16,810 bases of DNA from Fidelibacterota bacterium (lineage in GTDB: Bacteria; Fidelibacterota; Marinisomatia; Marinisomatales; JABMOV01): NCBI GenBank assembly GCA_046861395.1, contig JBHHUC010000047.1:1-16810 (forward strand), given 5' to 3'. Under the pieces are notes generated by a model. That model was given only the letters and a program-made list of their open reading frames with translations, was not told the DNA's origin and made no database searches. A program made the translations under genes and the position numbers. This document shows, one piece after another, positions 3-16,810 of this stretch (position 1 is its first letter; each line of letters starts with the position of its first letter).

Positions 3-3000
3 GGCTCAGGAACGACCTTTACTGTTACGCCCAGTAAGGAGACCCCCATCGGCACAGCCCTGGAGTTTGACGGCCTTGATGACTATATCGATTTTCCCAA
101 TTTACGCCTGGATCTTACCATGGGATACACCCTGGAAGGCTGGTTCAGAACGGCTGCCGCGGTCGATCAAACCATCCTCAATGCCGTAGATCCGGCCACC
201 GGGGTCAATCAAGCCAAACTTCGGCTGACACAGTCTGGGACAGTTGAATATATACATAATAATACGACGTTGACATCAAGTAACACAGTGAATGATGAAT
301 ATTGGCATCACTGGGCCGTAACCCATGATGGATCACAGGTGGTGCTTTATGTGGATGGTGCTGTTTCAGCCTCGGCTCCCGACACCGCTTTCATCAGTAC
401 TTTGTCTCAATTTTTCATCGGTCGCAGCGGCACCGGCAGTGAATATTTCAACGGTAAACTAGATGAAATGCGGGTCTGGAACAGTGCCAGAAACGAAGCT
501 CAGATTGATGGTACCCTGATGCAGGTTCTGAATGGCGATGAAAATGGACTGGTGGCCTATTGGAAATTCAATGAAGGATTCGGCGATAATGCCGTGGACA
601 ATTCCGGCAGTGGGCTGAATGGCCACCTGGTGAACAGCCAGGAATCAATTTGGGTAGAGGACATTCCGCTGGATGAATATTTCTCTCATTATTTTGATAT
701 TGAAAACCGCCAGGCTACTTTGAACCCAAGCAATACGTCTGTAGACCGCGTCGATTTCACTGACTTGGCCGCTGTCTCTGTCACGGGTTTCGTCCAGTAT
801 GAAGGAACAGCCTGTTTTGCTGAGGGCGTCGAAATCTTAGTGGATGGGGAATCCGCCTTTCCGACCATTCATACTGATCACACCGGACGGTTTTTGGCTG
901 AATTTGAACCGGGTCGGTCGGGGGCTCGTATTACTCCGGTCCTCGAAGGGCATGAATTTGTTCCGCCCTTCATTGATTTACCCACCCTGAACGCGCCCTT
1001 GTCCGGACTGTATTTCACCGACACCAAGAAAAACGATTTTAATGGAAAGGTCGTCGGTGGGTTGTGTGAATTTCCGATCACACCTTCCCAGGGGCAAATT
1101 GAGGTAAATATAGCCAGTGTCAGTGGTTGTATCGATACTACCGTTGTGCCTGATCCCTCCACCGGCGCCTTCCTGGTTGAGGGTCTTCCACCCTTGATCT
1201 ATAATGTTGCGGTGGATCATCCCGATCCAGCCATTGATCAGTTTTTCACTGGAGATACGGTTTCTCTCGTAAATGGAAGCGCCACCATGAATTTCATCTA
1301 CCGTGCCAGTCCAGAAGTGGTGATTTCCGGTTTCAATACCGACACCTGCGGTAATCGAATCATCAATGAATTGGAAGTATATACGTTTGATATCGACGTT
1401 TTTGAATCCTATTCCAATGTCGGTGTAATTAATACTTGTCCGGTGGATACCGGGATGTTGACGATATCCGATTTTATCGGGGATGCGTCGGATTCAACCT
1501 TCATGTTCACCGACGGCCATGCCACCTGGACCCATAAGGCCGGATATCCCAATATCCTAGGGGGTGGGGATTATCCTTATCAGAAAAATATTCAGGTCAT
1601 CGCCGAAGTAAACGAAACCGGTGAACAGGTCACGGCAACGGAGTGGGCCATTGTGCTGGGGAATCGACCGCGAAATTCAGTCTTTACGACGACCACTCCG
1701 GAAATTCCAATCATGATTCTTCGCGATCCGCCCGGTGATGGTAGTTACTCCTATTACTCCACTGAAAATGCCAATTCCTATTCTGTGAGTTTCCAGTCCA
1801 GTACGGAATTTACCGCTGGCGGATCGGCCACCATCCATATGGGATCAGACTGGGTATTGTCTGCCGGTGCCTGGGGGGTACCAGATGTTGAGTTGGAGAT
1901 TGAAATGGACCTAACAGCTTCCGCTTCGGTAACGCAAACCCAATCCGACTATTTCGAGCAGTCCTGGACCTTCACCACGACAGAGGCTTACAATACATCC
2001 GATGATGATGCGGTGGTTGGTGAAGGAGGTGATATTTTCATCGGAGGTGCTATGAATCTGCTGTACGGCGTTACGGATGTTTTACAGATCAATAGTACCT
2101 GTCAACCTGAAATTGTTCAGGATTTAATCGTCTCACCCCAGGGCTTTGCCACCAACTATGTCTATTCCGAGGCTCATATTGTGGGAACGTTAATTCCCTC
2201 TCTGTATGCGGTTGGTGACACCTCCTCAGCACAAATGTGGGAACAGATCATACAGAAGAATAATAATCTAAAGGATGCCGCCAGTTTTAGCCAGAATATC
2301 TCCTTTGATGCGGGCACTGGATCCTATGAATACACGGAAACGACAGAAATCAGTGAAACTATGACCACCGAAATGGAAATAGCCGTTGATGCCGGTGTGG
2401 CGGTTTCTGCTGGTTTAACGGTCAACGGCTTTGGTGTTTCTGGTGAAGTCTACACGAATTTGTCCATTACCCAGGGCCAATCGGAAACATCCACAAATTC
2501 GCAGACGAACACCTTCGGTTATGTCCTCAGCGATAATGATCCTGGTGATTATTTTTCGGTCAATGTTTATACCGATGGTGTGTACGGTTCACCAGTCTTT
2601 GAATTGGTTAGCGGTGCCAGTTCCTGCCCTTGGGAACCTAACACAGCTCCCCGTGAGGATGTAACCATGTCAATGGACCAATATACGGCCGTCAATGTTC
2701 CCCCGGACGAGCCAGCTGTATTCACGCTTTACCTGGGGAACACCAGTCAGACCTCTGAAGACGGCACTTTTGATCTTCAGGTTCTTCAAGATACCAACCC
2801 CGATGGGGCCAGTATTTCCATTAATGGTATTGATTTTGAGGAATCCTTTCCCATTTTCCTTTTGGCGGGACAACAGACAACCGTTACGATGACGGTTAAT
2901 CGTGGCCCTAATGCCTATATCTACAATGATATTGGTTTGCGCCTGGTGTCGGGTTGTGAGTATGAATTGTGGGGAGCGAGAGGGGACGCAACCGCACCCA

Positions 3001-5813
3001 TTCCATTGAGTGATTCCGTCTTTTTCTCAGTCGAGTTCATTGAGCCATGTACGGAAGTGGCCATCGCCGTTCCAGAAGATAACTGGCTGGTGACAGGGAA
3101 CAATCCGGAAGATTCCCTCTGGATCACGGTTACTGGTTACGACCGGTTTGATCCCGAGTTCACCCAGTTAGAACTTCAATACCGACAGGCAACACCCTTA
3201 GCCGGTCCAGGTAACAATGGTGATCCACCTCCTATGCTGGCCAGGTTCGGAGAAGAATCTGCTGGTGAAACGGAAGTGAAACGCCTGGCGAAGAGAGATC
3301 ATCCTTTCGCTGCGCCGGAGAATTTCGTTTTTAGGCCAGAACAACTGTTCGAACCGGCACTAAAAGGTGACCGCTTGGCCACAAATCCGTACACAACTGT
3401 TGAACCACTCAATTCCAACAAAACGGAGGAAAATGACTGGTTTGTAGCAACGACTGTACCCAAGGACTCCTTAACAGAAGATTTTGTATTGATCCCGTGG
3501 AATATCCATCCTGATATTATTCCGGACGGCACGTATGAGTTGCGGGTAGTGGCAGTCTGCAATGCCGGCCTCTATCCCGGTACATCACCGATCGTTACCG
3601 GTGTTATTGACCGAAATCCACCAGCTGTGGTCGGTCAACCCAGCCCGGTGGATGGCATCCTGGGGCAAAACGACCTCATATCCCTCACCATGGATGAAGA
3701 CATCGATTGTGAGGCTATCAACCCCGGTGCAGGGGATGTGAGCCTGGCAAACACGGCCACGGGGAATTCTGTGGATTACACCTACACCTGTGGTGGGAAC
3801 GAAATCTTTATTGAACCAAATGTTCCGAACCAGTACATTGAAAACCAGATACTAAGGGCTACGGTGAGCAACATTGCCGATGTCTATGGTAATATGAAGT
3901 CGGGTCCGGTGGAATGGGAATTCTTCGTGAATCGCAACCCCATTGAATGGACCGGTAGTGACATTACCGATCGAGTTATGTACGACGATGAAATATTTTA
4001 CGAAGAACGTCTGCTGGTGAATAATGGCGGATCACCACAGTCCTTCGATATCATCAATATCCCTGCCTGGTTAAATGTGAGTCCAACCAGCGGGACCATT
4101 CAACCGGGTGGTGGGATGACCATAACCATAACCTTGGCACTGGGGGTTGGTGCTGGTACTTACAATCAGACCATTTATTCTTCAAGTACGATGGGAGATG
4201 AACCCCTGATTATCGATATGCGTATTCTCTGCCATGAACCACAATGGTCCTTATCACCATCAGAATTTCAATATTCCATGAACATGATCGGTATCTTGGC
4301 CATCGATGACGTCCAGTCCAACGATACCTATGACATGGTGGGTGCGTTTGTGGGTGAGGAATTGCGTGGCGTGGCGAATATCCAATATGTACCTGACCTA
4401 GATAATTATGAAGTATTTCTCACCATTTACAGTAACGTATCACAGGGAGAAAACCTTTCTTTCAAAGTCTGGGATGCCTCGGATTGTGTGAATTACGGGT
4501 TTATTCTGGAAGCCTATAGTTTCGAGGCAAATGCGGTGCAGGGGTCACTTTCCGATCCAGTGACGATAACCGCCACCAACCAGCTCATTCAAAGCCGCTC
4601 CTTGCCGGCCGGTTGGACCTGGTTCAGCCTGAACCTGGAATCGGCTGATATGAGCACTAATAGTGTATTGAGTAGTCTGTCACCAGCAGGTGGAAATCTT
4701 GTTAAGAGCCAGACTTCTTTCTCCCAATATGTGGAGTCGGCCGGATGGGTTGGTGGTCTGGATTCGTTGGGGAACCTATCCATGTATCAAATCAATATAA
4801 CCGATCCTGATACCTTGGATCTCCTGGGATTCCCGGTGGATGTTGAACTTACACCGATTCCTATCAACCCCGGCTGGAACTGGGTGAGCTACCAGCCGCA
4901 GACCAGTCTGGAAATCAACCAAGCCCTAGTTTCGTTGGAGGCCATCACGGGGGATTTAATCAAGAGTCAGTTCGGCTTTGCTCAATATCTTGAAAATGTG
5001 GGTTGGCTAGGTAGTCTCACATTCATGACACCGCATTTGGGTTATCTACTGAAATCCACTAACGGTGGTACCCTAACCTATCCGGCAGAATTGCCACCCA
5101 CAGTACCCGAACCTGGCAATGACTCTGATGGTTATCCCATTGAGGATGCACCGGACTGGATCGTGGATGCCCGAGATTACGAATTCACAATGACCATGAC
5201 AGCACAAATTGAAATTGATGAGCAATTGGTCATCGGTGAAGGTTACCTGCTGGCGGCCTTTGCTACACTTCCGGACGGTTCAGAAGAAGTCCGTGGTGTG
5301 GTTCCAGCGGTATACATCGAGTCCGTGGATCAGACCTATTTCTTCCTGATGATCTATGGCAACAGCACTGCGGGTGAAGTCCTTCATTTCAAATTGTATG
5401 ATGCCCAAATGGACGTTATCGTACCTGTGAACGAAACGGTTACCTTCGAACCCAATGCAGCTCTGGGTGACCTCGCAGAACCCTTTGCCCTCACCAACCA
5501 GATATTGGGAATTGGCGACGAAGGGTTTATACCAGAGGAATTCAGCCTTGGTCAAAACTATCCCAACCCGTTTAATCCAATTACGAATATTGGTTTTGGG
5601 CTTCCAAGGGATAATGATGTAACGCTTAAAATCTATAACCTGAAGGGTGAATACGTGCGCACACTGGTGAATGAATACCGAGAAGCCGGATACTACTTCA
5701 TTCGGTGGGACGCCAGGGATGATTATGGCCGGCAATTGCCTTCCGGTATGTACTTAACTGTCATGGAGTCCGGTTCATTCCGAAGTGTCAAGAAAATGAT
5801 TCTTCTGAAATAA
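3..5813 (+). CDS. Giant secreted multidomain protein, 5'-partial: LamG-like jellyroll domain, Ig-like/beta-sandwich modules and a C-terminal T9SS-type (Por secretion tail / FlgD-Ig-like) sorting domain
   Basis: The frame is open from position 3 (GSGTTFTVTPSKETPIGTALEFDGLDDYIDF...), so the ATG at 120 is internal and the real start lies upstream of the window. LamG motifs are present: ALEFDGLDDY, YTLEGWF, WHHWAVTHDG, YFNGKLDEMRVWN, LVAYWKFNEG. The C-terminus reads FSLGQNYPNPFNP...LKIYNLKGEYVRTLV...LPSGMY...KKMILLK (about 5532-5810). The protein is strongly acidic and beta-rich. Confidence 0.9.
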   Translation, partial: GSGTTFTVTPSKETPIGTALEFDGLDDYIDFPNLRLDLTMGYTLEGWFRTAAAVDQTILNAVDPATGVNQAKLRLTQSGTVEYIHNNTTLTSSNTVNDEYWHHWAVTHDGSQVVLYVDGAVSASAPDTAFISTLSQFFIGRSGTGSEYFNGKLDEMRVWNSARNEAQIDGTLMQVLNGDENGLVAYWKFNEGFGDNAVDNSGSGLNGHLVNSQESIWVEDIPLDEYFSHYFDIENRQATLNPSNTSVDRVDFTDLAAVSVTGFVQYEGTACFAEGVEILVDGESAFPTIHTDHTGRFLAEFEPGRSGARITPVLEGHEFVPPFIDLPTLNAPLSGLYFTDTKKNDFNGKVVGGLCEFPITPSQGQIEVNIASVSGCIDTTVVPDPSTGAFLVEGLPPLIYNVAVDHPDPAIDQFFTGDTVSLVNGSATMNFIYRASPEVVISGFNTDTCGNRIINELEVYTFDIDVFESYSNVGVINTCPVDTGMLTISDFIGDASDSTFMFTDGHATWTHKAGYPNILGGGDYPYQKNIQVIAEVNETGEQVTATEWAIVLGNRPRNSVFTTTTPEIPIMILRDPPGDGSYSYYSTENANSYSVSFQSSTEFTAGGSATIHMGSDWVLSAGAWGVPDVELEIEMDLTASASVTQTQSDYFEQSWTFTTTEAYNTSDDDAVVGEGGDIFIGGAMNLLYGVTDVLQINSTCQPEIVQDLIVSPQGFATNYVYSEAHIVGTLIPSLYAVGDTSSAQMWEQIIQKNNNLKDAASFSQNISFDAGTGSYEYTETTEISETMTTEMEIAVDAGVAVSAGLTVNGFGVSGEVYTNLSITQGQSETSTNSQTNTFGYVLSDNDPGDYFSVNVYTDGVYGSPVFELVSGASSCPWEPNTAPREDVTMSMDQYTAVNVPPDEPAVFTLYLGNTSQTSEDGTFDLQVLQDTNPDGASISINGIDFEESFPIFLLAGQQTTVTMTVNRGPNAYIYNDIGLRLVSGCEYELWGARGDATAPIPLSDSVFFSVEFIEPCTEVAIAVPEDNWLVTGNNPEDSLWITVTGYDRFDPEFTQLELQYRQATPLAGPGNNGDPPPMLARFGEESAGETEVKRLAKRDHPFAAPENFVFRPEQLFEPALKGDRLATNPYTTVEPLNSNKTEENDWFVATTVPKDSLTEDFVLIPWNIHPDIIPDGTYELRVVAVCNAGLYPGTSPIVTGVIDRNPPAVVGQPSPVDGILGQNDLISLTMDEDIDCEAINPGAGDVSLANTATGNSVDYTYTCGGNEIFIEPNVPNQYIENQILRATVSNIADVYGNMKSGPVEWEFFVNRNPIEWTGSDITDRVMYDDEIFYEERLLVNNGGSPQSFDIINIPAWLNVSPTSGTIQPGGGMTITITLALGVGAGTYNQTIYSSSTMGDEPLIIDMRILCHEPQWSLSPSEFQYSMNMIGILAIDDVQSNDTYDMVGAFVGEELRGVANIQYVPDLDNYEVFLTIYSNVSQGENLSFKVWDASDCVNYGFILEAYSFEANAVQGSLSDPVTITATNQLIQSRSLPAGWTWFSLNLESADMSTNSVLSSLSPAGGNLVKSQTSFSQYVESAGWVGGLDSLGNLSMYQINITDPDTLDLLGFPVDVELTPIPINPGWNWVSYQPQTSLEINQALVSLEAITGDLIKSQFGFAQYLENVGWLGSLTFMTPHLGYLLKSTNGGTLTYPAELPPTVPEPGNDSDGYPIEDAPDWIVDARDYEFTMTMTAQIEIDEQLVIGEGYLLAAFATLPDGSEEVRGVVPAVYIESVDQTYFFLMIYGNSTAGEVLHFKLYDAQMDVIVPVNETVTFEPNAALGDLAEPFALTNQILGIGDEGFIPEEFSLGQNYPNPFNPITNIGFGLPRDNDVTLKIYNLKGEYVRTLVNEYREAGYYFIRWDARDDYGRQLPSGMYLTVMESGSFRSVKKMILLK

Positions 5814-5829: not shown

Positions 5830-8800
5830 ATGAAAACCGTCACGAAATGGTGCCTGTATCTGGGAACCGCTCAAACCCTGTTGTGGGGTCAGGCACCTTT
5901 ATGGACGGTGAACCCTTCAGAATATCAATTTACGGCCAATGTCACCGCCCTGGTGCAACTGGATTACGTAACTCAGGGTGATTCGGCTTCCTATCTTGGT
6001 GCCTTTGTTAATGATACCTGCCGCGGTGTGGTTCAGCCGGTCAATGTACTGGGGTCTTGGATGTATTTTCTTACACTTTACTCCAATCAGTCCCAGGAGG
6101 ATATGTCCCTGAAATATTATTCCTCCCTGGAAGATACAATTCTACCTATTTCGGAAGCATACACATTCACGGCCAACACATCCCTTGGTACACCTACAGA
6201 ACCGATAAATTATCATATTTTTCTGTATTATGATCATACGCCCTTGGTATCGGGCATACTGGATCAGACTATTGAGGATGGCAGCAGTTTCACCAGTTTT
6301 GATCTGGATGATTATTTAACGGAAGAGGATGGTGACAGTATTACCTGGAGTGTTATGGGTATGCAGTATTTGAATGTGACCCTTGATTCGTCACATGTAG
6401 TGACAGTGACCCCGGTGACGCCGGGGTGGGTGGGTAGTGAAACGATAGTGTTTACAGTCACGGATGTGACCAGCAACGGTTTTCATGATTCAGACACGGC
6501 CCAATTCATCATCCTGCCCCTGGATCATCCGCCGGTGGTGGGCAATATTCCGGGTCAGGTCATAGGGAACGGGGGCAGTTTTGCACCCATAGTATTATCA
6601 GACTACGTTAGCGAGCAGGACGGGGACAGCATTGCCTGGAGTTATGGTTTCGATGCTCCGGTGGAAATTGATACGATACCCTCCTGGAGTGTTAATCCGG
6701 CGGATTTTGTTTCTACCATGACTGTGACGGCCCGGGTCACGTCCCGTGGGGAAGCGGGAAATGATAGTGAATCAATACTGGCAGCCTTTGTGGATGGGGA
6801 ATGCCGGGGAGTGGTGAGTGGTGTCCCGGCTCTGGGGGAATGGTTGTATTTCCTAACCGTCTATGCCAACGTGGACGGAGAAACGATACACTTCCGTTTT
6901 TACAACAGTGGGACATCTCTGAATGAGCCCGTGAACGAAACGCTGGACTTCATTGCCAACGATGCAGAGGGTACGCCGGAAGCGCCCTATAATCTCACCG
7001 CGGGTTTTCTGGATGTGACCATCAGCAGTGCCCAGGTGGCACAGATTACGGTTCTGGACCCAGCCTGGTCGGGGACGGAATCTATCCGCTTTGTAGCCCG
7101 TGACGTTGGGACTCTCAATACCTATACCGATTCCACATCAGCTCTATTTACTATTCTGCCAGATCATACGCCCTTGGTATCGGGCATACTGGATCAGACT
7201 ATTGAGGATGGCAGCAGTTTCACCAGTTTTGATCTGGATGATTATTTAACGGAAGAGGATGGTGACAGTATTACCTGGAGTGTTATGGGTATGCAGTATT
7301 TGAATGTGACCCTTGATTCGTCACATGTAGTGACAGTGACCCCGGTGACGCCGGGGTGGGTGGGTAGTGAAACGATAGTGTTTACAGTCACGGATGTGAC
7401 CAGCAACGGTTTTCATGATTCAGACACGGCCACTTTTACCATTCTCTCGCAGGACCATGCGCCAACCATTTTAGCGATTCCAGCGGACACGATTGGTATT
7501 GGTGGCGAATTTCAAAATATCAACTTGGATAATTATTTAATAGAGGAAGATGGTCAATCAGTGTCCTGGAGTTACGCCTTTGCCCCCAGTTCAAATCCAC
7601 AGCCGGCACCGAATTGGTCTGTAAATGCTGCTGAATTTCAGTACAATATGTCATTAACAACTCGCATCATGCTGCGAGAACAGGAATCTTCAAATTCGGG
7701 TAATCTATTAGGTGCCTTTGTGGATGGCGAATGCCGTGGTATTGCCCAACCCATGCAGGTCTTGGATCAATCCCTTTATTTCCTCACTATCTTCGGAAAC
7801 AATGATGGGGACAACGTTACATTTAGGATTTATGATGCTGACCGCGGTGATAGTTTATTATTAAATGATACCATTCCATTTATAAATAATGATGTTATTG
7901 GCAGTCCGGAATCACCCTTTGAATTGGTTGTGTCCCAAATCGCCATCAGTTTTTTGGATAGTACTACCATTCAACCAGAATGGGTCGGTTCTAACCGGGG
8001 TGGGACGGAAAATATATATATTATTGCCACGGATGTGGGAACGGAGGCAGCCTTATCTGATTCAGCGATGGTTTCATTTACGCTGGTGCCGCAAGTGTTT
8101 CCTACGGTCCTGGATATTCCATCTCAGACAATTGAAGAAGGGGAACATTTTACTGTATTCGATTTGGATGATTTCCTGGATTATCAAGGGGATGTGAATT
8201 GGACCATTTCAGGTCAAAATGACTTAATTGTGTCTATGGACAGCAACCATGTGGTTACCATTACCACACCTGATGAAAACTGGTTTGGTGAAGAAAATAT
8301 CCGCTACACAGCCAGCGATGTCAATAATGATCAACTCAGTGATTGGCAAGAAACCTTATATATCGTACAAGCTGTAAATGATTTACCGGTATTTATGAGC
8401 GATCCAATCCTGACCGTTCTGGAAGATGAGCAATATATGTATCGTATTCTTGTCGAAGATGTAGATAATGATACTCTTGTTATATCAGCCAATTTGTTAC
8501 CGGATTGGTTGAGCTTATCAAACGATACACTCCTGGTTGGGACACCTTCGAATCAGCAGGTTGGGACACACCCGGCAGAATTATCGGTTTGGGATCATGT
8601 TGCCGATCCGGTCATTCAATCGTTTATAATTGAAGTGATCAATACAAACGATCCGCCCCAATTAGTAACGCCCTTCCAAGATCAGTATGTCATGTCAGAC
8701 GATAGTGTTCATACCATATTTGAAAACATCGTGGACAATTTTTATGATGAAGACCTGGGGGATGATCTTACATACTCATCGGATATTCTCGGGAGTGGGT

Positions 8801-11130
8801 TGGATTCAGTGGCGATTCATCAAGTCGAAACAGACAGTGTGGCTGTCGTAGTGTATCTTCAGGAAAATTTTATTGGCACGGTTGACATGACCCTCCGCGC
8901 TACGGATAACAATAGTGCCTTTGTGGAGGATACATTAACCGTCTTTATTCTTCAAACAAATCGACCGCCCGTGTTTACCAGCGATCCTGTATTGGTCGTT
9001 TCACAGGATCAGGAATATCGCTACAAACCGGAAATACTGGATATGGATGAAAATCCTGTAACCCTAACCATTGATACCCTTCCGGAGTGGTTGGATTTTG
9101 TCGGTGATTCCCTGATTATTGGAACACCGACAAATGATGACGTAGGTGAATATAACGCGATTATCAGTACCACCGATGGACTGTCTGAACCTGTATATCA
9201 AGCGTGGACAATTACAGTCGAAAACATAAATGATGCGCCCGTTGCCATTGCCAATACTAATTTTTCGACTCTGGCAGGAGTTGTAGTGGAACTGAATGGT
9301 GAATACTCCTATGACATCGATGGGGATTCTCTTTCGTTTAAATGGATATCTCTGGAAAACATTGAATTAACACATCCGTTATCTCCTAATCCATCTCTCC
9401 TAGTGCCGGATGTTAACGATTTGACCGAATTACAATTTGTGTTAATCGTATCGGATTATGGGCTTGCATCCGTTCCTGACACAATGACGGTCACGGTGCA
9501 TCCGGCAGATGAGGTGGACATAACTGACTATTCAAATGCTCCTCAAGATGCTGGCAGCGACCTGGGGATTTCGGTGGCTTTCCCAGATTATTTTTATGCA
9601 ACGGAGGCTACTCTATATTATACGGTGGGAGGAGAGAGAGGCTTCCAGAGCATACCCATGACACAACCTGGACGGGGACTCATTTTTACTGCTGTCATTC
9701 CAGGATCTCGGGTGAGTGGTAATGGATTAGCACACTACATTTCTGCCATAGATTCGGCGGGAGTAGTATTTCAAACGGATGTGGCATCCATTCCCGTCAT
9801 CATCCCAGAACATTCTATTTCTATAACCATGGAAAGCAGTGCCTATCCAGCAGGAATTCCTGAAGGGAAATGGCGTATCATATCGTCACCCATCTTGCCT
9901 GATGACCCGACAGTCGAAACGATATTAGCGGACGTATTTGGGCGAAATCACAGCAATAAAACCTGGCAGGTTTTCGATTGGAATGGAGAAAACTGGTTCA
10001 CGCCTGACACATTGGAGGCAGGAAAAGGATACTGGTTAAATCAGCGTATGGTAGATACGGTTGAATTTTCAGTTGGGGCAGGTACATCCGTAGCATTATC
10101 CGGGTTTAATGTTATGGTTAATCCAGGATGGAATTTGATCAGTTCACCGTTTCCGTTCCCAATTGGGGCAACCATTGATCAGGAATTGTTCTCCGGTCCC
10201 TACAGCTATGGTGATTTTGATGGTGAGGGGTGGAAAACCACCACGGATAGTTTAAGACCCTGGGGAGGATATGCGGTTTACAATTGGAGCGACAGTATTC
10301 AATCCATTGCTTTGGAACCGCTGACGGATTTACACCAGAACAGAGCAGCAAGGCAATCGGACGGTTGGATTGTAAATCTATCGGTATCCAAAGAGGGATA
10401 CGCTGATAACACAAATCGAATCGGCCAATCCTCAGTGGCGAGGGATGGAAAAGATGCTTTAGACAATATTGAGCCACCGAATCAATCCCACTATCTGAAA
10501 CTTGAATTACATAATAATGACTTGGATGACAGAATCACTACATTTACATCTGACATTCGATCCATTGATACGGAGCTGCAATCGTGGACGATTCTCATCT
10601 CTTCTAATGTATTCCGTGGATTGGCGAATGTGAATATGGATCTCCTTGGAGATTTTCCTACCCAATATAGTCGATTTTGGTTGGACTTATCTATGCGGAA
10701 TTACATTGATATAACGAATCGGAATTCGATTCAAATCAATGTCCAAAATGAATTTCCTTCAAGATATACTGTCATAACTGGACCTACATCCCAAGTAAAA
10801 CAAGCCGCTGAAGACCTGTTATCCACCTTACCACAATCCTATGCTCTCGCGCAGAATTATCCCAATCCGTTTAATGGTCAAACGCAGATACACTATACGC
10901 TTGAAAAGCCATCTGATGTTAAAATTATAATTTATAATATTCGTGGTCAGGCCATACAAACCCTCATTCAAAAACGTCAGGATTTTGGTGATTATCAAGT
11001 AGCCTGGGACGGTACCAATACCCGTCATGTGCCAGTGAGTTCGGGTATGTATTTTTACCGCATTACGGCCCGTTCACTTACAGATGGACATCACTTCAAT
11101 CAAACAAAGAAAATGGTATTTATCCAGTGA
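5830..11130 (+). CDS. Large secreted/surface adhesin-like protein with tandem cadherin-like/Ig-like repeats, a PKD-like module and a C-terminal T9SS-type sorting domain
   Basis: The N-terminus resembles a signal peptide (MKTVTKWCLYLGTAQTLLWG|Q). Cadherin-like repeats have NDxP/DHxP linkers and DxD motifs (NDLPVF, NDPPQL, NRPPVF, NDAPVA). Two He_PIG/CADG-like units are present (LPDWLSL...VGTP and LPEWLDF...IGTP). A PKD-like segment reads VELNGEYSYDIDGDSLSFKW. The C-terminus reads YALAQNYPNPFN...IYNIRGQ...VSSGMYFYRI...KKMVFIQ. Confidence 0.9.
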   Translation: MKTVTKWCLYLGTAQTLLWGQAPLWTVNPSEYQFTANVTALVQLDYVTQGDSASYLGAFVNDTCRGVVQPVNVLGSWMYFLTLYSNQSQEDMSLKYYSSLEDTILPISEAYTFTANTSLGTPTEPINYHIFLYYDHTPLVSGILDQTIEDGSSFTSFDLDDYLTEEDGDSITWSVMGMQYLNVTLDSSHVVTVTPVTPGWVGSETIVFTVTDVTSNGFHDSDTAQFIILPLDHPPVVGNIPGQVIGNGGSFAPIVLSDYVSEQDGDSIAWSYGFDAPVEIDTIPSWSVNPADFVSTMTVTARVTSRGEAGNDSESILAAFVDGECRGVVSGVPALGEWLYFLTVYANVDGETIHFRFYNSGTSLNEPVNETLDFIANDAEGTPEAPYNLTAGFLDVTISSAQVAQITVLDPAWSGTESIRFVARDVGTLNTYTDSTSALFTILPDHTPLVSGILDQTIEDGSSFTSFDLDDYLTEEDGDSITWSVMGMQYLNVTLDSSHVVTVTPVTPGWVGSETIVFTVTDVTSNGFHDSDTATFTILSQDHAPTILAIPADTIGIGGEFQNINLDNYLIEEDGQSVSWSYAFAPSSNPQPAPNWSVNAAEFQYNMSLTTRIMLREQESSNSGNLLGAFVDGECRGIAQPMQVLDQSLYFLTIFGNNDGDNVTFRIYDADRGDSLLLNDTIPFINNDVIGSPESPFELVVSQIAISFLDSTTIQPEWVGSNRGGTENIYIIATDVGTEAALSDSAMVSFTLVPQVFPTVLDIPSQTIEEGEHFTVFDLDDFLDYQGDVNWTISGQNDLIVSMDSNHVVTITTPDENWFGEENIRYTASDVNNDQLSDWQETLYIVQAVNDLPVFMSDPILTVLEDEQYMYRILVEDVDNDTLVISANLLPDWLSLSNDTLLVGTPSNQQVGTHPAELSVWDHVADPVIQSFIIEVINTNDPPQLVTPFQDQYVMSDDSVHTIFENIVDNFYDEDLGDDLTYSSDILGSGLDSVAIHQVETDSVAVVVYLQENFIGTVDMTLRATDNNSAFVEDTLTVFILQTNRPPVFTSDPVLVVSQDQEYRYKPEILDMDENPVTLTIDTLPEWLDFVGDSLIIGTPTNDDVGEYNAIISTTDGLSEPVYQAWTITVENINDAPVAIANTNFSTLAGVVVELNGEYSYDIDGDSLSFKWISLENIELTHPLSPNPSLLVPDVNDLTELQFVLIVSDYGLASVPDTMTVTVHPADEVDITDYSNAPQDAGSDLGISVAFPDYFYATEATLYYTVGGERGFQSIPMTQPGRGLIFTAVIPGSRVSGNGLAHYISAIDSAGVVFQTDVASIPVIIPEHSISITMESSAYPAGIPEGKWRIISSPILPDDPTVETILADVFGRNHSNKTWQVFDWNGENWFTPDTLEAGKGYWLNQRMVDTVEFSVGAGTSVALSGFNVMVNPGWNLISSPFPFPIGATIDQELFSGPYSYGDFDGEGWKTTTDSLRPWGGYAVYNWSDSIQSIALEPLTDLHQNRAARQSDGWIVNLSVSKEGYADNTNRIGQSSVARDGKDALDNIEPPNQSHYLKLELHNNDLDDRITTFTSDIRSIDTELQSWTILISSNVFRGLANVNMDLLGDFPTQYSRFWLDLSMRNYIDITNRNSIQINVQNEFPSRYTVITGPTSQVKQAAEDLLSTLPQSYALAQNYPNPFNGQTQIHYTLEKPSDVKIIIYNIRGQAIQTLIQKRQDFGDYQVAWDGTNTRHVPVSSGMYFYRITARSLTDGHHFNQTKKMVFIQ
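6232..6501 (+). repeat. Perfect 270-bp direct repeat, copy 1 (encodes 90 aa of a cadherin/Ig-like module)
   Basis: Identical base for base to 7162-7431 (gatcatacgcccttgg...cagacacggcc) by manual comparison. The offset is 930 bp, in frame. Confidence 0.97.
7162..7431 (+). repeat. Perfect 270-bp direct repeat, copy 2
   Basis: Identical to 6232-6501. The flanks differ immediately on both sides. Confidence 0.97.
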
Positions 11131-11744
11131 TAAGATGGTTAATTATATTGATTCTTTTCGTATCTGTTGGCATTCCGCAGGATTCTTCAAACGTAGAAAG
11201 TCCTATACCTGGCATTGAAAAATCAAAACCACAAAAAGTTATAGTAGCACCACAATTCTTTAATCAATTGGAGCATCTCTATAATGGCTATGTTCAGAAA
11301 GCCGTAACCGAATCGGGAAATCAACTGGTATTATTGCAATCCCTATCAGATTTATATGAAGACGACAGTGTTTTATGCGTTAAACCCGAATGTTTGGAGG
11401 GGCTGAATTCAGGAGATTCAACGAGTGTTTATATATTGGTATGGGAAATGGACATTGATAATAAAAACATGTTTTTGACTCTTTATTCCATCGATGAAGC
11501 AAAAGTAATCAATCGATCTGGGGACACCATCCCAGACGCAACAGGCAGGGTTGAAGAAAAAATTCAAGGGCTCGTTGAAAAGTGTCTAAATAAAAAACCC
11601 ATCAACTGGTCGAAATACCTGACGCCAAAACATACTATTTATACTCTTGGTACAGCAGCCATCATTTGGGGTATTCAATTCTTCTCCAGTCGAGACAACA
11701 AAGATGAGGCGGGCATCGGTTTGCCACCGGATTGGCCTAACTAG
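11127..11744 (+). CDS. Hypothetical exported protein with an N-terminal signal peptide and a C-terminal hydrophobic segment
   Basis: The GTG start overlaps the upstream stop (GTGA at 11127-11130), suggesting translational coupling. It has a hydrophobic N-terminus (MIRWLIILILFVSVGIP|Q), a CxxxxC motif (CVKPEC), a C-terminal hydrophobic stretch (TIYTLGTAAIIWGIQFF) and a Pro-rich tail (GLPPDWPN). Confidence 0.8.
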   Translation: MIRWLIILILFVSVGIPQDSSNVESPIPGIEKSKPQKVIVAPQFFNQLEHLYNGYVQKAVTESGNQLVLLQSLSDLYEDDSVLCVKPECLEGLNSGDSTSVYILVWEMDIDNKNMFLTLYSIDEAKVINRSGDTIPDATGRVEEKIQGLVEKCLNKKPINWSKYLTPKHTIYTLGTAAIIWGIQFFSSRDNKDEAGIGLPPDWPN

Positions 11745-12333: not shown

Positions 12334-12364
12334 AAACAACAAGAGGCCAGCTGGCGCTGACCTC
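12334..12364 (-). terminator. Rho-independent terminator downstream of the tRNA
   Basis: The minus strand reads GAGGTCAGC-GCCA-GCTGGCCTC (9-bp stem with one G-U) followed by TTGTTGTTT. It begins 8 nt after the tRNA CCA end. Confidence 0.75.
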
Positions 12365-12372
12365 GCGTTATT

Positions 12373-12448
<76 letters not shown>

Positions 12449-12707: not shown

Positions 12708-14726
12708 TTAATGGGAATAATAATAGTTGACTGTTTTACGATTGACCCAGCGAAAACCGTCCCAGAATTCAATGTGATGCAAGGCCCGCAAAATGGGTTC
12801 ATAGTAGCGGGAGGGTGAAAACACTTGCTGATTGGCATTATAATAGTTATCGATAAACTCATCTGTAAAATCGATATCCAATAACTGGAAGTCCTGATCA
12901 AGTCGAATGAGGATACCACCGTAACATGTGTTAAAATTCAGGAAATAATGGCCGGATGCATCGCGATTCACGAGTAGGACCATTTCTCTGTCCTGACTTT
13001 GGAATAAAGGATTGATACGCGGTAAACGGATAATATATTTGGCCCGGGAAGGCCCGGCACCATGTGCATAATAATTCTGGTCTGTGGCCGGCGTAGCACC
13101 ATCGATATTATCAATATCAAATATGAGAATGATCCCCTGATCAAAATCGTTATGCGTACCGGTTAAAAAAAGTTCGGGAATATCATCGCCGTCTTCATCG
13201 ATCAGCCGGGCACAGTACAGGGCACCTGGATTCCATGCGGTCTGCACGGGAGTCCCTTCCAGGTCAAACTGGATCAGTTTACAGGGGAAATATGGCTCAT
13301 GTTGTAAAACAGCAAATAAGAAGGTTGTGTTTTTGAATTGGTAGGGTAATATGAGTGTCGTTCGGTAGAGGGGATCATAGACCTGGTGACCAAACACTGG
13401 AGATTCTACTTCCTGATATTGCCACAGGATATCCCCGTTATGGCTATAGAGGATCAGGTGCGGTGTGATCGCATCACGATTCAGAAATGGCGCATATAGC
13501 ACCTCATTATTATCGTCACCATTGAAATCCTGTATCACGTATCGGGTTCGGCGATTCCATCCCGGTTGGAGGGGTTGAGTTTCCGGAAAAGATTGACTCC
13601 ACAAGGCCCGTCCCTTGGCGTTGCGTGCAACAATGGTCCTGCCGTTTCCGATTAATTCCACCGGATTATCATCCAACGCCAGAATGGCAACCAGCGTCAT
13701 TGAGAGGACGGTCAGAGCGGACAGGAGAGAAAAAAGGATTTGTCGCCGGAAGCGGCGAGTATTCAGGCGGTCGGCAATCGGTCGCTTATAACGTCGAACG
13801 ATGGCGGGATCCTGCAGACAGTCAGCAACGGTCGCCGGTGTTTTTAAGACGAGTCGTTTCCCGGGGTAGGTTTGGGTTAGTTCGTTTAGCAGGGTGATGC
13901 AATTGCCGTGATTTTCCTGTGGTAGAACCAGGACCCGGATCGGAGAAAACCAGGCCGCTCTGAGTTTGGCCACCACGCTGTCGGGTGACACGGCCGTAAT
14001 GGTGCCGTGCCCGTCCAGGGATCCGGTAAAGGTAACATCTGGTCTGATTGCATAGGAAAATCGGTGGCCGCAGATGCGGCTGAGGACAACAATCGTTTGT
14101 AAGCAGGCGGCCAGTCCCAGGGAGCCACCGGTAACAGCGGCATCCAGATTGGGAAACTGGTACACCACCCGGAAAAAAGTCATACGGGCTACATGTTTCC
14201 CCAGGATATAGGTTTTGGCGAACCTGAAGGCCAGCGTAATCTGCATAAAGAGCATGTCATTGTCGCTAAGGCCGGCATTGTTAAAGGAGATGATATCCTG
14301 CTCAGCGTGATCTGACAAGGGGTCAATGATGACCTGCAAGGGGATGATGAATCCCGCCGCCACATCCGGGCGTGGTGTAGTTCGTTTTTCCACCAGAACA
14401 ACCTGGGCCGGTCGTTCATTTTTAATTCCGGGAGTCCGCCGATCCTGATGGGCAGGTGATGAAGATGTCTGACCCAGGTATTGTTGCAGGTTCTGGATCG
14501 ATTGGAGAATCGTCTGAACGTATTCCTGGCCAGTGGGTTTGTCCAGTATTTTCCGTTTTATCATGGCTTTTACATGATACAGCAGGTGATTCAAATCATC
14601 TGACGAACGACAGGTAAGGTTTTCGGGGCGCAGGGCCAGCGGAAAGTAAGGCAGCATTTCCTGATAATATGATATCAGGTGGTCAGAGTGTGTGCGGGAC
14701 GGTAACTGGCAGAAAAATGCCAGCAT
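12708..14726 (-). CDS. Single-pass membrane protein: cytoplasmic Lon-type (peptidase S16-like, Ser-Lys) protease domain, TM helix and extracytoplasmic beta-propeller-like domain with FG-GAP-like loops
   Basis: VTGGSLGLA resembles the Lon DGPSAG motif (Ser202, codon 14121-14123). VTFTGSLDGHGTITAV...VAKLRAA...IRVLVLPQEN resembles Lon AMTGEI..G.V.PIGG..EKL.AA...I..VLIP..N (Lys254, codon 13965-13967). The TM helix ILFSLLSALTVLSMTLVAILAL (13674-13739) is preceded by RRFRRQ, which puts the N-terminal part inside the cell. The C-terminal part has DFNGDDNNEV and DEDGDDIPEL loops and GxxLW blade motifs (GRALWS, GDILWQ). No Walker A motif is present. The true start may be further upstream (CTG at 14816). 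Confidence 0.8.
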   Translation of the reverse strand: MLAFFCQLPSRTHSDHLISYYQEMLPYFPLALRPENLTCRSSDDLNHLLYHVKAMIKRKILDKPTGQEYVQTILQSIQNLQQYLGQTSSSPAHQDRRTPGIKNERPAQVVLVEKRTTPRPDVAAGFIIPLQVIIDPLSDHAEQDIISFNNAGLSDNDMLFMQITLAFRFAKTYILGKHVARMTFFRVVYQFPNLDAAVTGGSLGLAACLQTIVVLSRICGHRFSYAIRPDVTFTGSLDGHGTITAVSPDSVVAKLRAAWFSPIRVLVLPQENHGNCITLLNELTQTYPGKRLVLKTPATVADCLQDPAIVRRYKRPIADRLNTRRFRRQILFSLLSALTVLSMTLVAILALDDNPVELIGNGRTIVARNAKGRALWSQSFPETQPLQPGWNRRTRYVIQDFNGDDNNEVLYAPFLNRDAITPHLILYSHNGDILWQYQEVESPVFGHQVYDPLYRTTLILPYQFKNTTFLFAVLQHEPYFPCKLIQFDLEGTPVQTAWNPGALYCARLIDEDGDDIPELFLTGTHNDFDQGIILIFDIDNIDGATPATDQNYYAHGAGPSRAKYIIRLPRINPLFQSQDREMVLLVNRDASGHYFLNFNTCYGGILIRLDQDFQLLDIDFTDEFIDNYYNANQQVFSPSRYYEPILRALHHIEFWDGFRWVNRKTVNYYYSH

Positions 14727-14830
14727 TGCTGAAAGCTGAAACCGGCGGTGTGTCTCGTTGCGCAGGGCAAAGAGTAATGCTTGAAATTGATTTTCCTGTT
14801 GCAGGAAATTGTTCAGGGAGGAATTCCGTG

Positions 14831-15634
14831 CTAGTAAATATGGATTGCTAAGTTATCCAGGGATGGAATTGCGGAGAAAGAAATGGTATTATGCGCAATG
14901 GGAAGAGGAGGCGTTTGAAAATCATTTCCGATGAGAGCCACGTATAAGTTGGGACAGGTCTTGGGAAGCGAAAGGGTAACATCCCATTTCCGCCGGTTGG
15001 ATTTACTCCGGACCGTAATGGTAATGGGAATCAGTTCCCCGGCAAGGGTAATCATCTGAGATTGGGGAGGGGGATTATTGTTCTCAAGAGGCATGAACCT
15101 CAAGGGGCGAATGATCTGAGCCGGCCGAACCTGAATGCTGGTTTCCTCCACGTTGATGTCCAATTCCTCCGGGATGGTGACGACGCCCTGGGCATTACTG
15201 AGCCAGCACTCCTCCACATCCTTGAGAGTGACGCAGGCGTGGGTCGCAAGGGTCTGATCGTCGGCGAGGATATGGAGCATGGTTTTCTTTTCCTGGCCAT
15301 CCCGCATCATGCGGATGATCATGTTCTCTTTTTCAGTACTGAAAACACCGGTATTAACAAAGCGGGCCTTCATGTCTGAACCGGAATCGGCTGCTAGGAC
15401 CGTCCGATGATGTACCTGCGTCGGCTGGGGAATAGATACCGGGTGAAGGGTCAGGGGTTGGGTCGGCGCTTTCGGTAGGGATGGCAACGGTTGATAGATA
15501 TTTAGGGTCGTTTTCCACCGGGTCCGGCAGAAGGCACACGTTTCAATATGCTGCATTTCGGCCGGCGGGATAAAGGAACTTTCCAGGGACTTTACCGCCA
15601 ACACATCAATTTCTATGTCAGATAAGCATTTCAT
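14831..15634 (-). CDS. Soluble zinc-binding anti-sigma factor-like protein (N-terminal ZAS / zf-HC2 domain, Pro-rich linker, beta-rich C-terminal region)
   Basis: C3-x25-H29-x3-C33-x2-C36 (MKC...QHIETCAFC) fits the ZAS consensus. There is no TM segment. The gene starts 27 nt after the stop of the sigma-like gene, the classic anti-sigma position. Confidence 0.75.
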   Translation of the reverse strand: MKCLSDIEIDVLAVKSLESSFIPPAEMQHIETCAFCRTRWKTTLNIYQPLPSLPKAPTQPLTLHPVSIPQPTQVHHRTVLAADSGSDMKARFVNTGVFSTEKENMIIRMMRDGQEKKTMLHILADDQTLATHACVTLKDVEECWLSNAQGVVTIPEELDINVEETSIQVRPAQIIRPLRFMPLENNNPPPQSQMITLAGELIPITITVRSKSNRRKWDVTLSLPKTCPNLYVALIGNDFQTPPLPIAHNTISFSAIPSLDNLAIHIY

Positions 15635-15661
15635 ACATTTAGTCTATATGTGCATTTCAGT

Positions 15662-16708
15662 CTAAATCGGAATAATTAATTCCTGTAAATACTTTTTCCC
15701 CTGTTTTATCATGTATTCAATCCGGCTTCGGTGGTGTTGCCACGCCCCGTTCAATTGTTTTGAACCCTCAACTTGGTTTAAATATTTGGGTAATAATTTA
15801 ACCTTGCCGGTATGGATTAAATCATCAAAATACTCCATGACGATGGTAAGGTAGATATTACGTTCGCCGTTGGTAACTTTCTGCCGATTGATATATGTTT
15901 TGTTTAAAATTTCTTCCATGAGGGTTTGAATTTTATTAAATAAGAGCTTTCGTTCATATTCATTGATGGACAAGGGTCCGGATTTTCTAATCATGCTCTC
16001 ATCGTAATCAAAATGACGGGTGCAGTTTTTGGCTTTAAAGCAGGAAAGGAGAATGGAAAAGGAAATATAATTCTGTACATCCATTTGCTGGCGGCACCGC
16101 TGCAACAATTGGAGGAGCAGATTGGGAGCAGTGGCTTTCTCCATGGGGATTTCATCCAGCCATTGCAGTAATGTTTCCCGTGTTACAGGGTTATCTTTTC
16201 GGTTATAAATAACCGTCATGGTCGTTCCGTCATCATAATAGAAATATTTTCGATAATTGATTGTAAATTTCCCAATATGGGGATGACGGTTGGGAGACAG
16301 CATGAGATTCCGGTATAAGCGAAATCCTTCCACGTCCTCCTGTTTAAAGCGATGAATCAATTCCTGACGCAGTTTGGATGAAACCAGCTTTCTCAACCAA
16401 TAGAATGACTCTTCCGGACAGGCTTCAATGCGATGGATTTTTGGCAGGAAATAATCTGCCAGTTCGTGTAATTCTCCCCGGTCATTGGTGCGAAACAGGA
16501 CAGCAATAATACTGATGGCTTCTTCCTTAAGATAATTATCGTTGGAATTAATGATATTGAAGTAATAATTATTGTTATAAACCTTTTTCTTCAATATACG
16601 ATATGCCATCTCAGAAATGATATCGTAGAGGGCATTGATATCCTGATCAGACAATGGTTGCTCCGTCATCTCAATGAGGATGCGGGTTAATTTTGCACTA
16701 TTTTTCAT
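15662..16708 (-). CDS. Hypothetical 348-aa helical, basic protein; putative atypical ECF-like RNA polymerase sigma factor
   Basis: The ATG at 16708 follows an A-rich leader and is preferred over the TTG at 16756. The N-terminal segment (DINALYDIISEMAYRILKKK...KEEAISIIAVLF...FYWLRKLVSSKLRQELIHRFK) resembles sigma region 2. The C-terminus (ERNIYL...HRSRIEYMIKQGKKYLQELI) resembles the end of region 4. The gene sits directly upstream of a ZAS gene. The CDS itself is secure, but the sigma assignment is inferred. Confidence 0.6.
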   Translation of the reverse strand: MKNSAKLTRILIEMTEQPLSDQDINALYDIISEMAYRILKKKVYNNNYYFNIINSNDNYLKEEAISIIAVLFRTNDRGELHELADYFLPKIHRIEACPEESFYWLRKLVSSKLRQELIHRFKQEDVEGFRLYRNLMLSPNRHPHIGKFTINYRKYFYYDDGTTMTVIYNRKDNPVTRETLLQWLDEIPMEKATAPNLLLQLLQRCRQQMDVQNYISFSILLSCFKAKNCTRHFDYDESMIRKSGPLSINEYERKLLFNKIQTLMEEILNKTYINRQKVTNGERNIYLTIVMEYFDDLIHTGKVKLLPKYLNQVEGSKQLNGAWQHHRSRIEYMIKQGKKYLQELIIPI

Positions 16709-16810
16709 TTTTTCAACTTTTTTTTCTGAAAAACAGAAAAGTGTATTTAGTCCCAAGTGAAAGAGGGGCGGTATCCCATGTCTGCTAATACTATTTGCTT
16801 TATAAATTAC

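Follow-up and report, generated by a model that had tools for sequence, protein, structure and literature searches.

A candidate transmembrane signalling system of a sigma-like factor, a soluble zinc anti-sigma-like protein and a Lon-type receptor-protease in a Fidelibacterota bacterium

Release of a sigma factor by cleavage of its anti-sigma factor is a central route of envelope sensing in bacteria. To our knowledge, the routes known so far need either a membrane-spanning anti-sigma factor and two proteases, or a cytoplasmic second messenger. Here, a locus of three genes (named A, B and C) from an uncultured marine Fidelibacterota bacterium (assembly GCA_046861395.1, contig JBHHUC010000047.1) is described, in which a membrane protein with a Lon-type protease domain is encoded beside a soluble zinc protein of the anti-sigma type and a candidate atypical sigma-like factor. 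The window, i.e. the whole stretch of DNA which was analysed, is the entire contig of 16.8 kb; the assembly comprises 2.37 Mb and is 94% complete.

By analogy, the closest precedent for the mechanism proposed for this locus would be CalpL-CalpT-CalpS, associated with type III CRISPR, in which a Lon domain lacking an ATPase is fused to a sensor domain, the substrate is soluble and anti-sigma-like, and the output is an ECF-like sigma factor. The sensor is a cytoplasmic SAVED domain binding cA4. According to the accessible part of a report on this system, CalpL cuts a stretch of CalpT that has little structure and thereby exposes an LAA degron; the same part states that the cut in RseA exposes a C-terminal VAA degron (10.1101/2024.05.08.593097). 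RseA belongs to the sigmaE pathway of regulated intramembrane proteolysis (RseA/DegS/RseP/ClpXP), spans the membrane and is cut by two proteases in sequence. For DdvS/DdvA of Myxococcus xanthus, the accessible part of the article describes DdvA as a single protein with a CHCC-type sigma-binding zinc domain and a protease-fold domain within the sensing protein; this domain, of TPR-CHAT type, is periplasmic and lacks a complete active site, and RseP is still needed for release (PMC11506125). Finally, the membrane-anchored archaeal LonB and MtaLonC have the Lon proteolytic fold with a Ser-Lys dyad and keep an AAA+ or AAA-like module for protein turnover.

The genes A, B and C are three open reading frames (ORFs) in tandem, all on the minus strand, between positions 12708 and 16708 (lengths in amino acids, aa):

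15662-16708, minus strand: gene A, 348 aa with its ATG at 16708; soluble helical protein, candidate atypical sigma-like factor
14831-15634, minus strand: gene B, 267 aa; soluble zinc anti-sigma-like (ZAS) protein with an N-terminal CHCC domain, a proline-rich linker and a beta-rich C-terminal domain
12708-14816, minus strand: gene C, receptor-protease; 702 aa from a probable CTG start (14816) or 672 aa from the ATG (14726)

The gap between A and B measures 27 nt and the gap between B and C 104 nt to the ATG or 14 nt to CTG 14816; the ORFs thus confirm the co-oriented arrangement and the spacing given in an earlier note on this DNA. The reading frame of C is open 5' of the ATG and comprises 714 codons in all. 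The 30 additional residues gained from CTG 14816 align to the N-termini of homologues and form the first helices of the structural model with a predicted local distance difference test score (pLDDT) of 80-92. Because of the open upstream frame, the alignment to homologue N-termini and the confident fold of the extra residues, CTG 14816 is the better start, and translation of C most likely begins there. Only 102 nt of the contig remain upstream of A; most of the promoter region of A is therefore missing.

We propose, tentatively, that A, B and C form one signalling module, in which an outside signal would cause C to cut B, whereupon the sigma-like A would be freed. We consider this plausible, though somewhat short of probable. 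The proposal draws on the domains of C, the zinc motif, the gene order and the fused relatives of the trio, all of which are shown, and on the modelled binding between A and B; from these we infer the sigma identity of A, the role of B as substrate, the cleavage site and the activation by a ligand.

With CalpL-CalpT-CalpS the trio has in common a Lon domain without ATPase combined with a sensor domain, a soluble anti-sigma-like protein as putative substrate and a sigma-like protein as putative output. A conserved L-A-A-D motif in the linker of B also recalls the LAA degron given for CalpT in the accessible part of that report. The sensor of C, in contrast to the SAVED domain, is a propeller outside the cell and lies across a transmembrane (TM) helix from the protease. 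The Calp proteins gave no sequence match with A, B or C in the PDB searches. As in the sigmaE pathway, an outside signal would, in the proposal, free the sigma factor by proteolysis of the anti-sigma factor; unlike RseA, B is soluble, and as the membrane protein C itself carries the protease, one cut could suffice. The trio resembles DdvS/DdvA in its CHCC-type zinc domain and in a protease fold within the sensing protein. It differs from DdvA, as far as the accessible part of that article goes, in that the protease of C is cytoplasmic, of Lon type, has a complete dyad and is separate from the zinc protein. In comparison with LonB and LonC, C has a helical N-terminal domain and a propeller instead of the AAA+ or AAA-like module. 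A search of the full-text literature, with subscription journals outside its coverage, gave no description of a membrane Lon-type protease combined with an anti-sigma factor and a propeller, which agrees with the earlier note, where no characterised system of this architecture was known. The logic of protease-released sigma factors is already known; in the searchable literature, neither the architecture of the trio nor the A family is described.

Protein C consists of four parts, which are encoded as follows:

14466-14816, minus strand: N-terminal cytoplasmic helical domain, ~117 residues counted from the CTG; the modelled helices span 2-113
13782-14426, minus strand: Lon-type (S16-like) protease domain; codon of Ser202 at 14121-14123, codon of Lys254 at 13965-13967
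13674-13739, minus strand: single TM helix, residues 330-351; Kyte-Doolittle maximum 2.35, the only hydrophobic segment
12711-13649, minus strand: extracytoplasmic propeller-like domain, residues ~360-672

Residues of the dyad are numbered as in P0003, i.e. C from the ATG. A single-sequence search of C against Pfam gave no match, NCBIfam gave one weak match (LonB model, E 0.018) and a word-based homologue search returned only 2 proteins. The PDB, searched with the single sequences of A, B and C, yielded no usable match. The family profile of C, searched against the PDB, matched Lon proteolytic domains (1xhk, 1.2e-6; 1z0e, 3.3e-6; 1rr9, 1.3e-4). The cytoplasmic part was modelled from a 31-sequence alignment with a pLDDT of 88.9 and a predicted template modelling score (pTM) of 0.88. 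With this model, Foldseek gave 188 matches at E ≤ 0.001 (best E 5.8e-10, probability 1.00), and Lon was found in all among the matches listed. In VIA, the Lon domain of E. coli (1rr9_A) was aligned over 178 of 182 residues with Z 19.8 and a root mean square deviation (rmsd) of 2.7, and the structures 1z0e_A (Z 17.1), 3k1j_B (Z 19.0) and 4fw9_A (Z 16.8) represent the likeness to LonB and LonC. The Lon domain of CalpL (7qda_A) reached only Z 11.0; in contrast to CalpL, the domain of C is thus nearer to classical Lon. Ser202 and Lys254, which lie in the contexts GGS202LG and AK254LRAA, are invariant in all 31 homologues at 17-32% identity and likewise in 17 of 17 sequences of another alignment. 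The G-x-S-x-G and T-G motifs around the dyad are also invariant (31/31). Judged from sequence and model, the cytoplasmic domain of C is a Lon proteolytic fold with a catalytic Ser-Lys dyad, for which catalysis is predicted.

No AAA+ module precedes the protease domain, and no AAA family was matched in Pfam or NCBIfam; only the helical domain of ~117 residues is found there. This domain gave generic helical-repeat matches only (VIA, Z ≤ 8.3) and is a candidate docking site for B or for the A-B pair. A SAVED domain was not matched in C by Pfam; the Lon domain is followed by the TM helix and the propeller-like domain. The 20 residues before the TM helix contain 9 K/R, and 3 K/R plus 3 D/E follow it (counted by eye). 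The orientation of TM helices is commonly derived from the positive-inside rule, by which the basic N-terminal flank would place the protease in the cytoplasm and the propeller outside. For the C-terminal third, the family profile matched PQQ-type propellers, designed propellers and the PL11 propellers YesW and YesX (6tji_A, 4.1e-15; 4cag_A, 5.5e-10; 3hxj_A, 7.4e-10; 2z8r_A, 8.8e-10). The outside domain is accordingly called beta-propeller-like, based on repeated blade motifs which match known propellers. Thus, the fold matches, the single hydrophobic segment and the propeller profiles bear out the earlier description of C as a Lon-type Ser-Lys protease with one TM helix and a propeller-like outside domain, and the two catalytic residues, on whose conservation that description depended, are retained throughout.

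Two paralogues of C are present in the same genome (G000:C120:821-3064, locus L005; G000:C30, L004:6085-8391). They measure 747 and 768 aa, share 32-34% identity, keep the dyad, have a longer N-terminal helical region and are without A or B as neighbours.

In protein B, two sites are of importance:

15527-15628, minus strand: codons of the zinc motif C3-x25-H29-x3-C33-x2-C36, from alignment and sequence
15386-15397, minus strand: L80-A81-A82-D83 in the linker, a conserved [L/R/Y]-A-A-[D/A] island; candidate cleavage or degron site

The residues C3, H29, C33, C36 and R108 are invariant in all 19 sequences of the B family, which share 15-21% identity. The spacing is the same as that of RsrA, and the motif follows the ZAS pattern H/C-x(23-26)-H-x3-C-x2-C near the N-terminus. 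The sole PDB match of the B family profile was the anti-sigma factor RsiW (5wuq_C, E 0.096), with positions 25-55 aligned on both sides and therefore in register. No Kyte-Doolittle window of B reaches 1.6, i.e. B has no hydrophobic segment. With the invariant CHCC residues, the RsiW match and the modelled binding of A (see below), the earlier reading of B as a soluble HxxxCxxC zinc anti-sigma-like protein is supported. Its CHCC motif is of the type described for DdvA in the accessible part of PMC11506125. The linker is rich in proline and variable apart from an island with the consensus LAAD, whose AA was seen by eye in 13 of the 19 rows. By analogy to the LAA degron of CalpT, LAAD is a candidate cleavage or degron site. 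A conserved, beta-rich C-terminal domain follows the linker.

Binding between A and B is supported by modelling of the complex. An interaction score (ipSAE) of 0.82 was obtained in three runs, compared to 0.00 for the best of 3 controls; the pairing of the sigma-like protein and the ZAS domain envisaged in the earlier note is reproduced in the model. Among solved complexes, 116 of 157 reach this score, as do 2 of 215 mismatched pairs; since custom alignments were used, these counts apply only approximately. Across the runs, the partner pLDDT was at least 78 and at least 92% of the contacts agreed. The interface is formed by the zinc domain of B (residues 3-58) and the N-terminal domain of A (2-41, 65, 72 and 97-106), with minor contacts between B 173-201 and A 150-169. 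The LAAD motif of B lies outside the modelled interface.

Protein A has no Kyte-Doolittle window ≥ 1.6. Its AlphaFold2 model (pLDDT 84.6) begins with a five-helix domain. A VIA search covered 48,161 chains; each of the 13 rows that fall on residues 1-125 of A was a sigma factor or a chain of a sigma-bearing complex, at Z 5.8-8.2, which is a range common among helical bundles and below the safe level of the tool. The best of these was sigma2 of ShbA (9m84_F; Z 8.2, rmsd 2.5, 92 of 113 residues aligned); the others include pro-sigmaK, SigW, SigK, SigI6, SigB, SigE, CnrH, sigmaS and domain 2 of SigA. The remaining 37 rows matched residues 241-348 to unrelated helical folds. When Foldseek candidates were re-scored against A, sigma factors made up 8 of 12 rows with Z ≥ 5.5. 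Collinear full-length alignments to SigD, SigB and sigmaS extend over 165-172 residues at an rmsd of ~21, and they are the sole link of A to sigma4. Language-model neighbours of A among the named Atlas clusters include some with Sigma70_r2 (14-19% of the members) and Sigma70_r4 (12-32%); all scored < 0.9 and are used as leads only. Based on the fold resemblance, the language-model leads and the nature of its partner, A is probably a sigma-like factor, though a very divergent one.

For conservation of the trio, 43 related loci were examined using family hidden Markov models: the window, the two paralogues of C from the same genome, 20 loci picked by A and 20 loci picked by C. As loci were picked by A or C, this sample is not independent. 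The order A-B-C on one strand was found in 34 of the 43 loci, with a gene cut by the contig end in 8 of the 34. The trio is more than a chance neighbourhood, since homologues of all three genes occur in the same order in these loci; the conserved order expected in the earlier note was therefore found. The rest comprises one locus with A-B followed by the contig end, one beginning inside B, three not assessable, one degraded and three with C in the absence of A and B. In one of the 34, L056 from the single-contig genome G029, the third gene is represented by a piece of 155-246 aa at ~4325-5041, which corresponds to the propeller end of C and contains neither a Lon domain nor a TM helix; the locus seems to keep the trio in decayed or reduced form. 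Two C genes stand in tandem in L095 and L105. In the genome under study, one copy each of A and B was found, also when profiles were used for the search, and C is present three times. Because of this ratio of three C to one A-B pair and the tandem C genes, several receptors may feed one A-B pair. Three loci of a single genus have an ordinary extracytoplasmic function (ECF) sigma gene 1-2 kb upstream of A (L044:8961-9551, L049:4207-4818 and L051:3063-3674), which was seen in no other examined locus.

Of the 401 genomes sampled from the phylum, 25 have a homologue of A, and close relatives are labelled Marinimicrobia or Neomarinimicrobiota. A search of genome contigs with the A alignment gave 13 loci, all of Marinimicrobia type or from an 'uncultured bacterium', which are probably mostly loci already sampled. 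Among 1.84 billion representatives, the A profile matched at least 1154 clusters (50% identity) at E ≤ 0.001. Named members are all annotated as 'hypothetical protein' and originate from assemblies of Bacteroidota, Ignavibacteria and KSB1. In the 951-aa protein P0042, an A-family domain (605-947) follows about 10 tandem helical repeats of ~60 aa, for which there is no Pfam family. The A-family fusion proteins P0042, P0036 and P0040 matched no Pfam family, and reading them gave no functional clue.

A metagenome set contained 80 loci with a homologue of A, of which 43 were assessable (1600 nt or more of downstream sequence). A is followed in 36 of the 43 by one protein of ~470 aa, in which a zinc domain, one TM helix and a C-type propeller are fused: H-x3-C-x2-C is found near residue 29, one TM helix at ~100-130 and a C-terminal domain homologous to the propeller of C. 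The other 7 consist of one protein just under the TM threshold, one with another outside domain, three short zinc ORFs and two without such a gene. The cytoplasmic Lon part of C had no match in any of the 80 loci. The two-gene relatives agree with the trio in the A family, in the H/C-x-H-x3-C-x2-C domain and in the outside propeller, but differ in having no Lon domain (0/80) and in the zinc domain being covalently joined to the sensor; they are themselves unannotated. The trio is the split form of a widespread two-gene module, which was overlooked in the earlier note. As the fused two-gene form is the common one and free of Lon, the trio is best taken as derived from a classical membrane anti-sigma pair, with the protease added. 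The fusion in relatives also ties the domain of B to the sensor of C more firmly than neighbourhood alone.

Upstream of A, the palindrome TTTCAGAAA is located at 16723-16731 on the minus strand, 23 nt before the ATG. A palindrome of the form TTTC-N(1-6)-GAAA precedes A in 13 of 34 loci of the phylum, where 3.0 ± 1.65 were expected and the maximum in 300 Markov resamplings was 7. In the metagenome loci there was no enrichment (2 of 69, 4.2 expected). The palindrome could be an operator specific to the lineage or a consequence of relatedness among the loci.

The surroundings of the trio in the window are as follows. Just 3' of gene C and in the same orientation lies a tRNA-Met gene (CAT; 12373-12448, minus strand), after which comes a terminator-like hairpin (12343-12364, minus strand). 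On the plus strand, an ORF at 3-5813, open at the contig start, encodes 1936 aa with a Por_Secre_tail type IX sorting tail, FlgD_ig and Laminin_G_3. The next ORF (5830-11130) encodes 1766 aa with Por_Secre_tail, FlgD_ig, Big_9, He_PIG and a cadherin-like match below the cut-off; a segment of ~90 aa is present twice in this protein and is letter-identical (read by eye). An ORF of 205 aa (11127-11744) overlaps the end of this second giant gene; its product has an N-terminal hydrophobic stretch and no family match in Pfam or NCBIfam. CRISPR genes were not found on the contig.

In the proposed mechanism, B would hold A inactive, with the CHCC zinc domain clamping the sigma2-like N-terminal domain of A. 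An outside signal at the propeller would activate the protease of C, probably via a changed oligomeric state. Activated C would then cut B in the exposed linker, for which L-A-A-D is the candidate site, and degradation of the B remnant would leave A free.

Several results weigh against this proposal, among them the Z range of the N-domain matches given above. The assignment of A as sigma factor in the earlier note is only partly supported: its N-terminal domain resembles sigma2 at middling Z, and no likeness was found at the level of sequence. A (P0001) had no match in Pfam or NCBIfam, Pfam sigma families were absent from the 21 aligned members and from all of the 147 representatives scanned out of 150 listed, and the family profile of A had no match among PDB sequences. 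When sigma alignments (ECF and group-1/3) built for this genome and 12 relatives were compared to the A family by hhalign, the probability was ≤ 1.4%, also with a 129-sequence A profile. Five ordinary sigma genes with PF04542 are present in this genome, A not being among them. Foldseek with the whole A model returned nothing at E ≤ 0.001, serum albumins forming the top rows, and the C-terminal domain (244-348) matched generic helical folds only, without a standalone sigma4 match. This C-terminal domain does not take part in confident contacts with B, whereas the zinc anti-sigma factor DdvA binds both sigma2 and sigma4 according to the accessible part of PMC11506125. Among the family matches expected in the earlier note, Lon and the beta-propeller were obtained; sigma70 r2/r4 for A and Pfam zf-HC2 for B (no match at E ≤ 1) were not found. 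Upstream of A, there was no conserved promoter motif, and an analysis of enriched k-mers showed no clear bipartite motif. C also occurs without A and B, namely in the two paralogues and in L090.

Other explanations were weighed on the same evidence. The relay could be the same and A a regulator or effector other than a sigma factor, for example a DNA-binding protein sequestered by B. This would account for the missing sequence and profile similarity to sigma70, for a C-terminal domain whose best match among generic helical folds is the Q-lambda antiterminator (Z 7.3) and for a modelled B which touches only the N-terminal and middle parts of A; the palindrome in phylum loci would likewise fit a DNA-binding dimer more readily than a sigma promoter. 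We regard it as rather unlikely, since all 13 fold matches of the N-domain are sigma chains, A aligns collinearly to whole group-3 sigmas and the palindrome is not enriched in metagenome loci. Moreover, the combination of a zinc domain, a TM helix and an outside sensor, which is found in the partner relatives, is the hallmark architecture of ECF anti-sigma factors. The roles of the partners could also be different, with C as a negative regulator removing free A or an A-B complex delivered by B, and with A released otherwise, e.g. by a redox or zinc change at the CHCC motif. Thiol oxidation does release some zinc anti-sigma factors, such as RsrA, the conserved C-terminal domain of soluble B could serve as an adaptor, and orphan paralogues of C exist. 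However, fused relatives wire the propeller directly to the zinc domain, which marks the propeller as an input to release of A, and the exposed linker of B contains a conserved small-residue motif; a negative role of C is therefore improbable.

We think it very improbable that the Lon-like domain is a non-catalytic scaffold and that C tethers A-B to the membrane and signals by conformation. The Lon-like domains of RadA, ComM and BrxL are non-proteolytic and score nearly as high against C as true Lon does (Z 15.1-17.0), but invariance of the dyad and its surrounding motifs in every homologue at such low identity is hard to explain without catalysis. It would be more surprising still if the module served envelope or secretion housekeeping, e.g. 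processing for the neighbouring giant type IX substrates. The same contig does encode two giant proteins bearing type IX sorting tails; their genes are, however, on the opposite strand and not conserved beside the trio in related loci, the protease domain is cytoplasmic, and B has a zinc motif of the anti-sigma type.

Returning to the relay in which C would cut B and free a sigma-like A, its origin can be outlined from the two-gene relatives. The membrane anti-sigma factor of a two-gene module would have been split in this lineage; the zinc domain would have become a soluble protein, and the receptor would have gained a helical domain and a Lon protease inside the cell. The copy numbers suggest that splitting lets multiple inputs reach one output. 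On a wider scale, family A could be a deep unrecognised branch of sigma-like factors in Bacteroidota/Ignavibacteria, KSB1, Calditrichota and Marinimicrobia-type bacteria, which is missed by the family models in use. Its membrane anti-sigma factor would have been split in the Marinimicrobia-type lineage, where a single-pass receptor with an ATP-independent Lon protease would free the factor in one step and several receptor paralogues would converge on one anti-sigma factor. This is possible, but we hold it with considerable doubt.

If the proposed mechanism is true, a receptor with its own protease would carry the signal through the membrane in one step and would amount to a compact, portable switch from sensor to transcription. 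The trio points to a large unannotated family of proteins of ~340 residues, whose regular partner is a zinc membrane protein of the anti-sigma type. Should the members of this family be sigma factors, a major bacterial group would have more sigma families than have been counted. The split and fused forms would provide a natural experiment on the rewiring of signalling modules.

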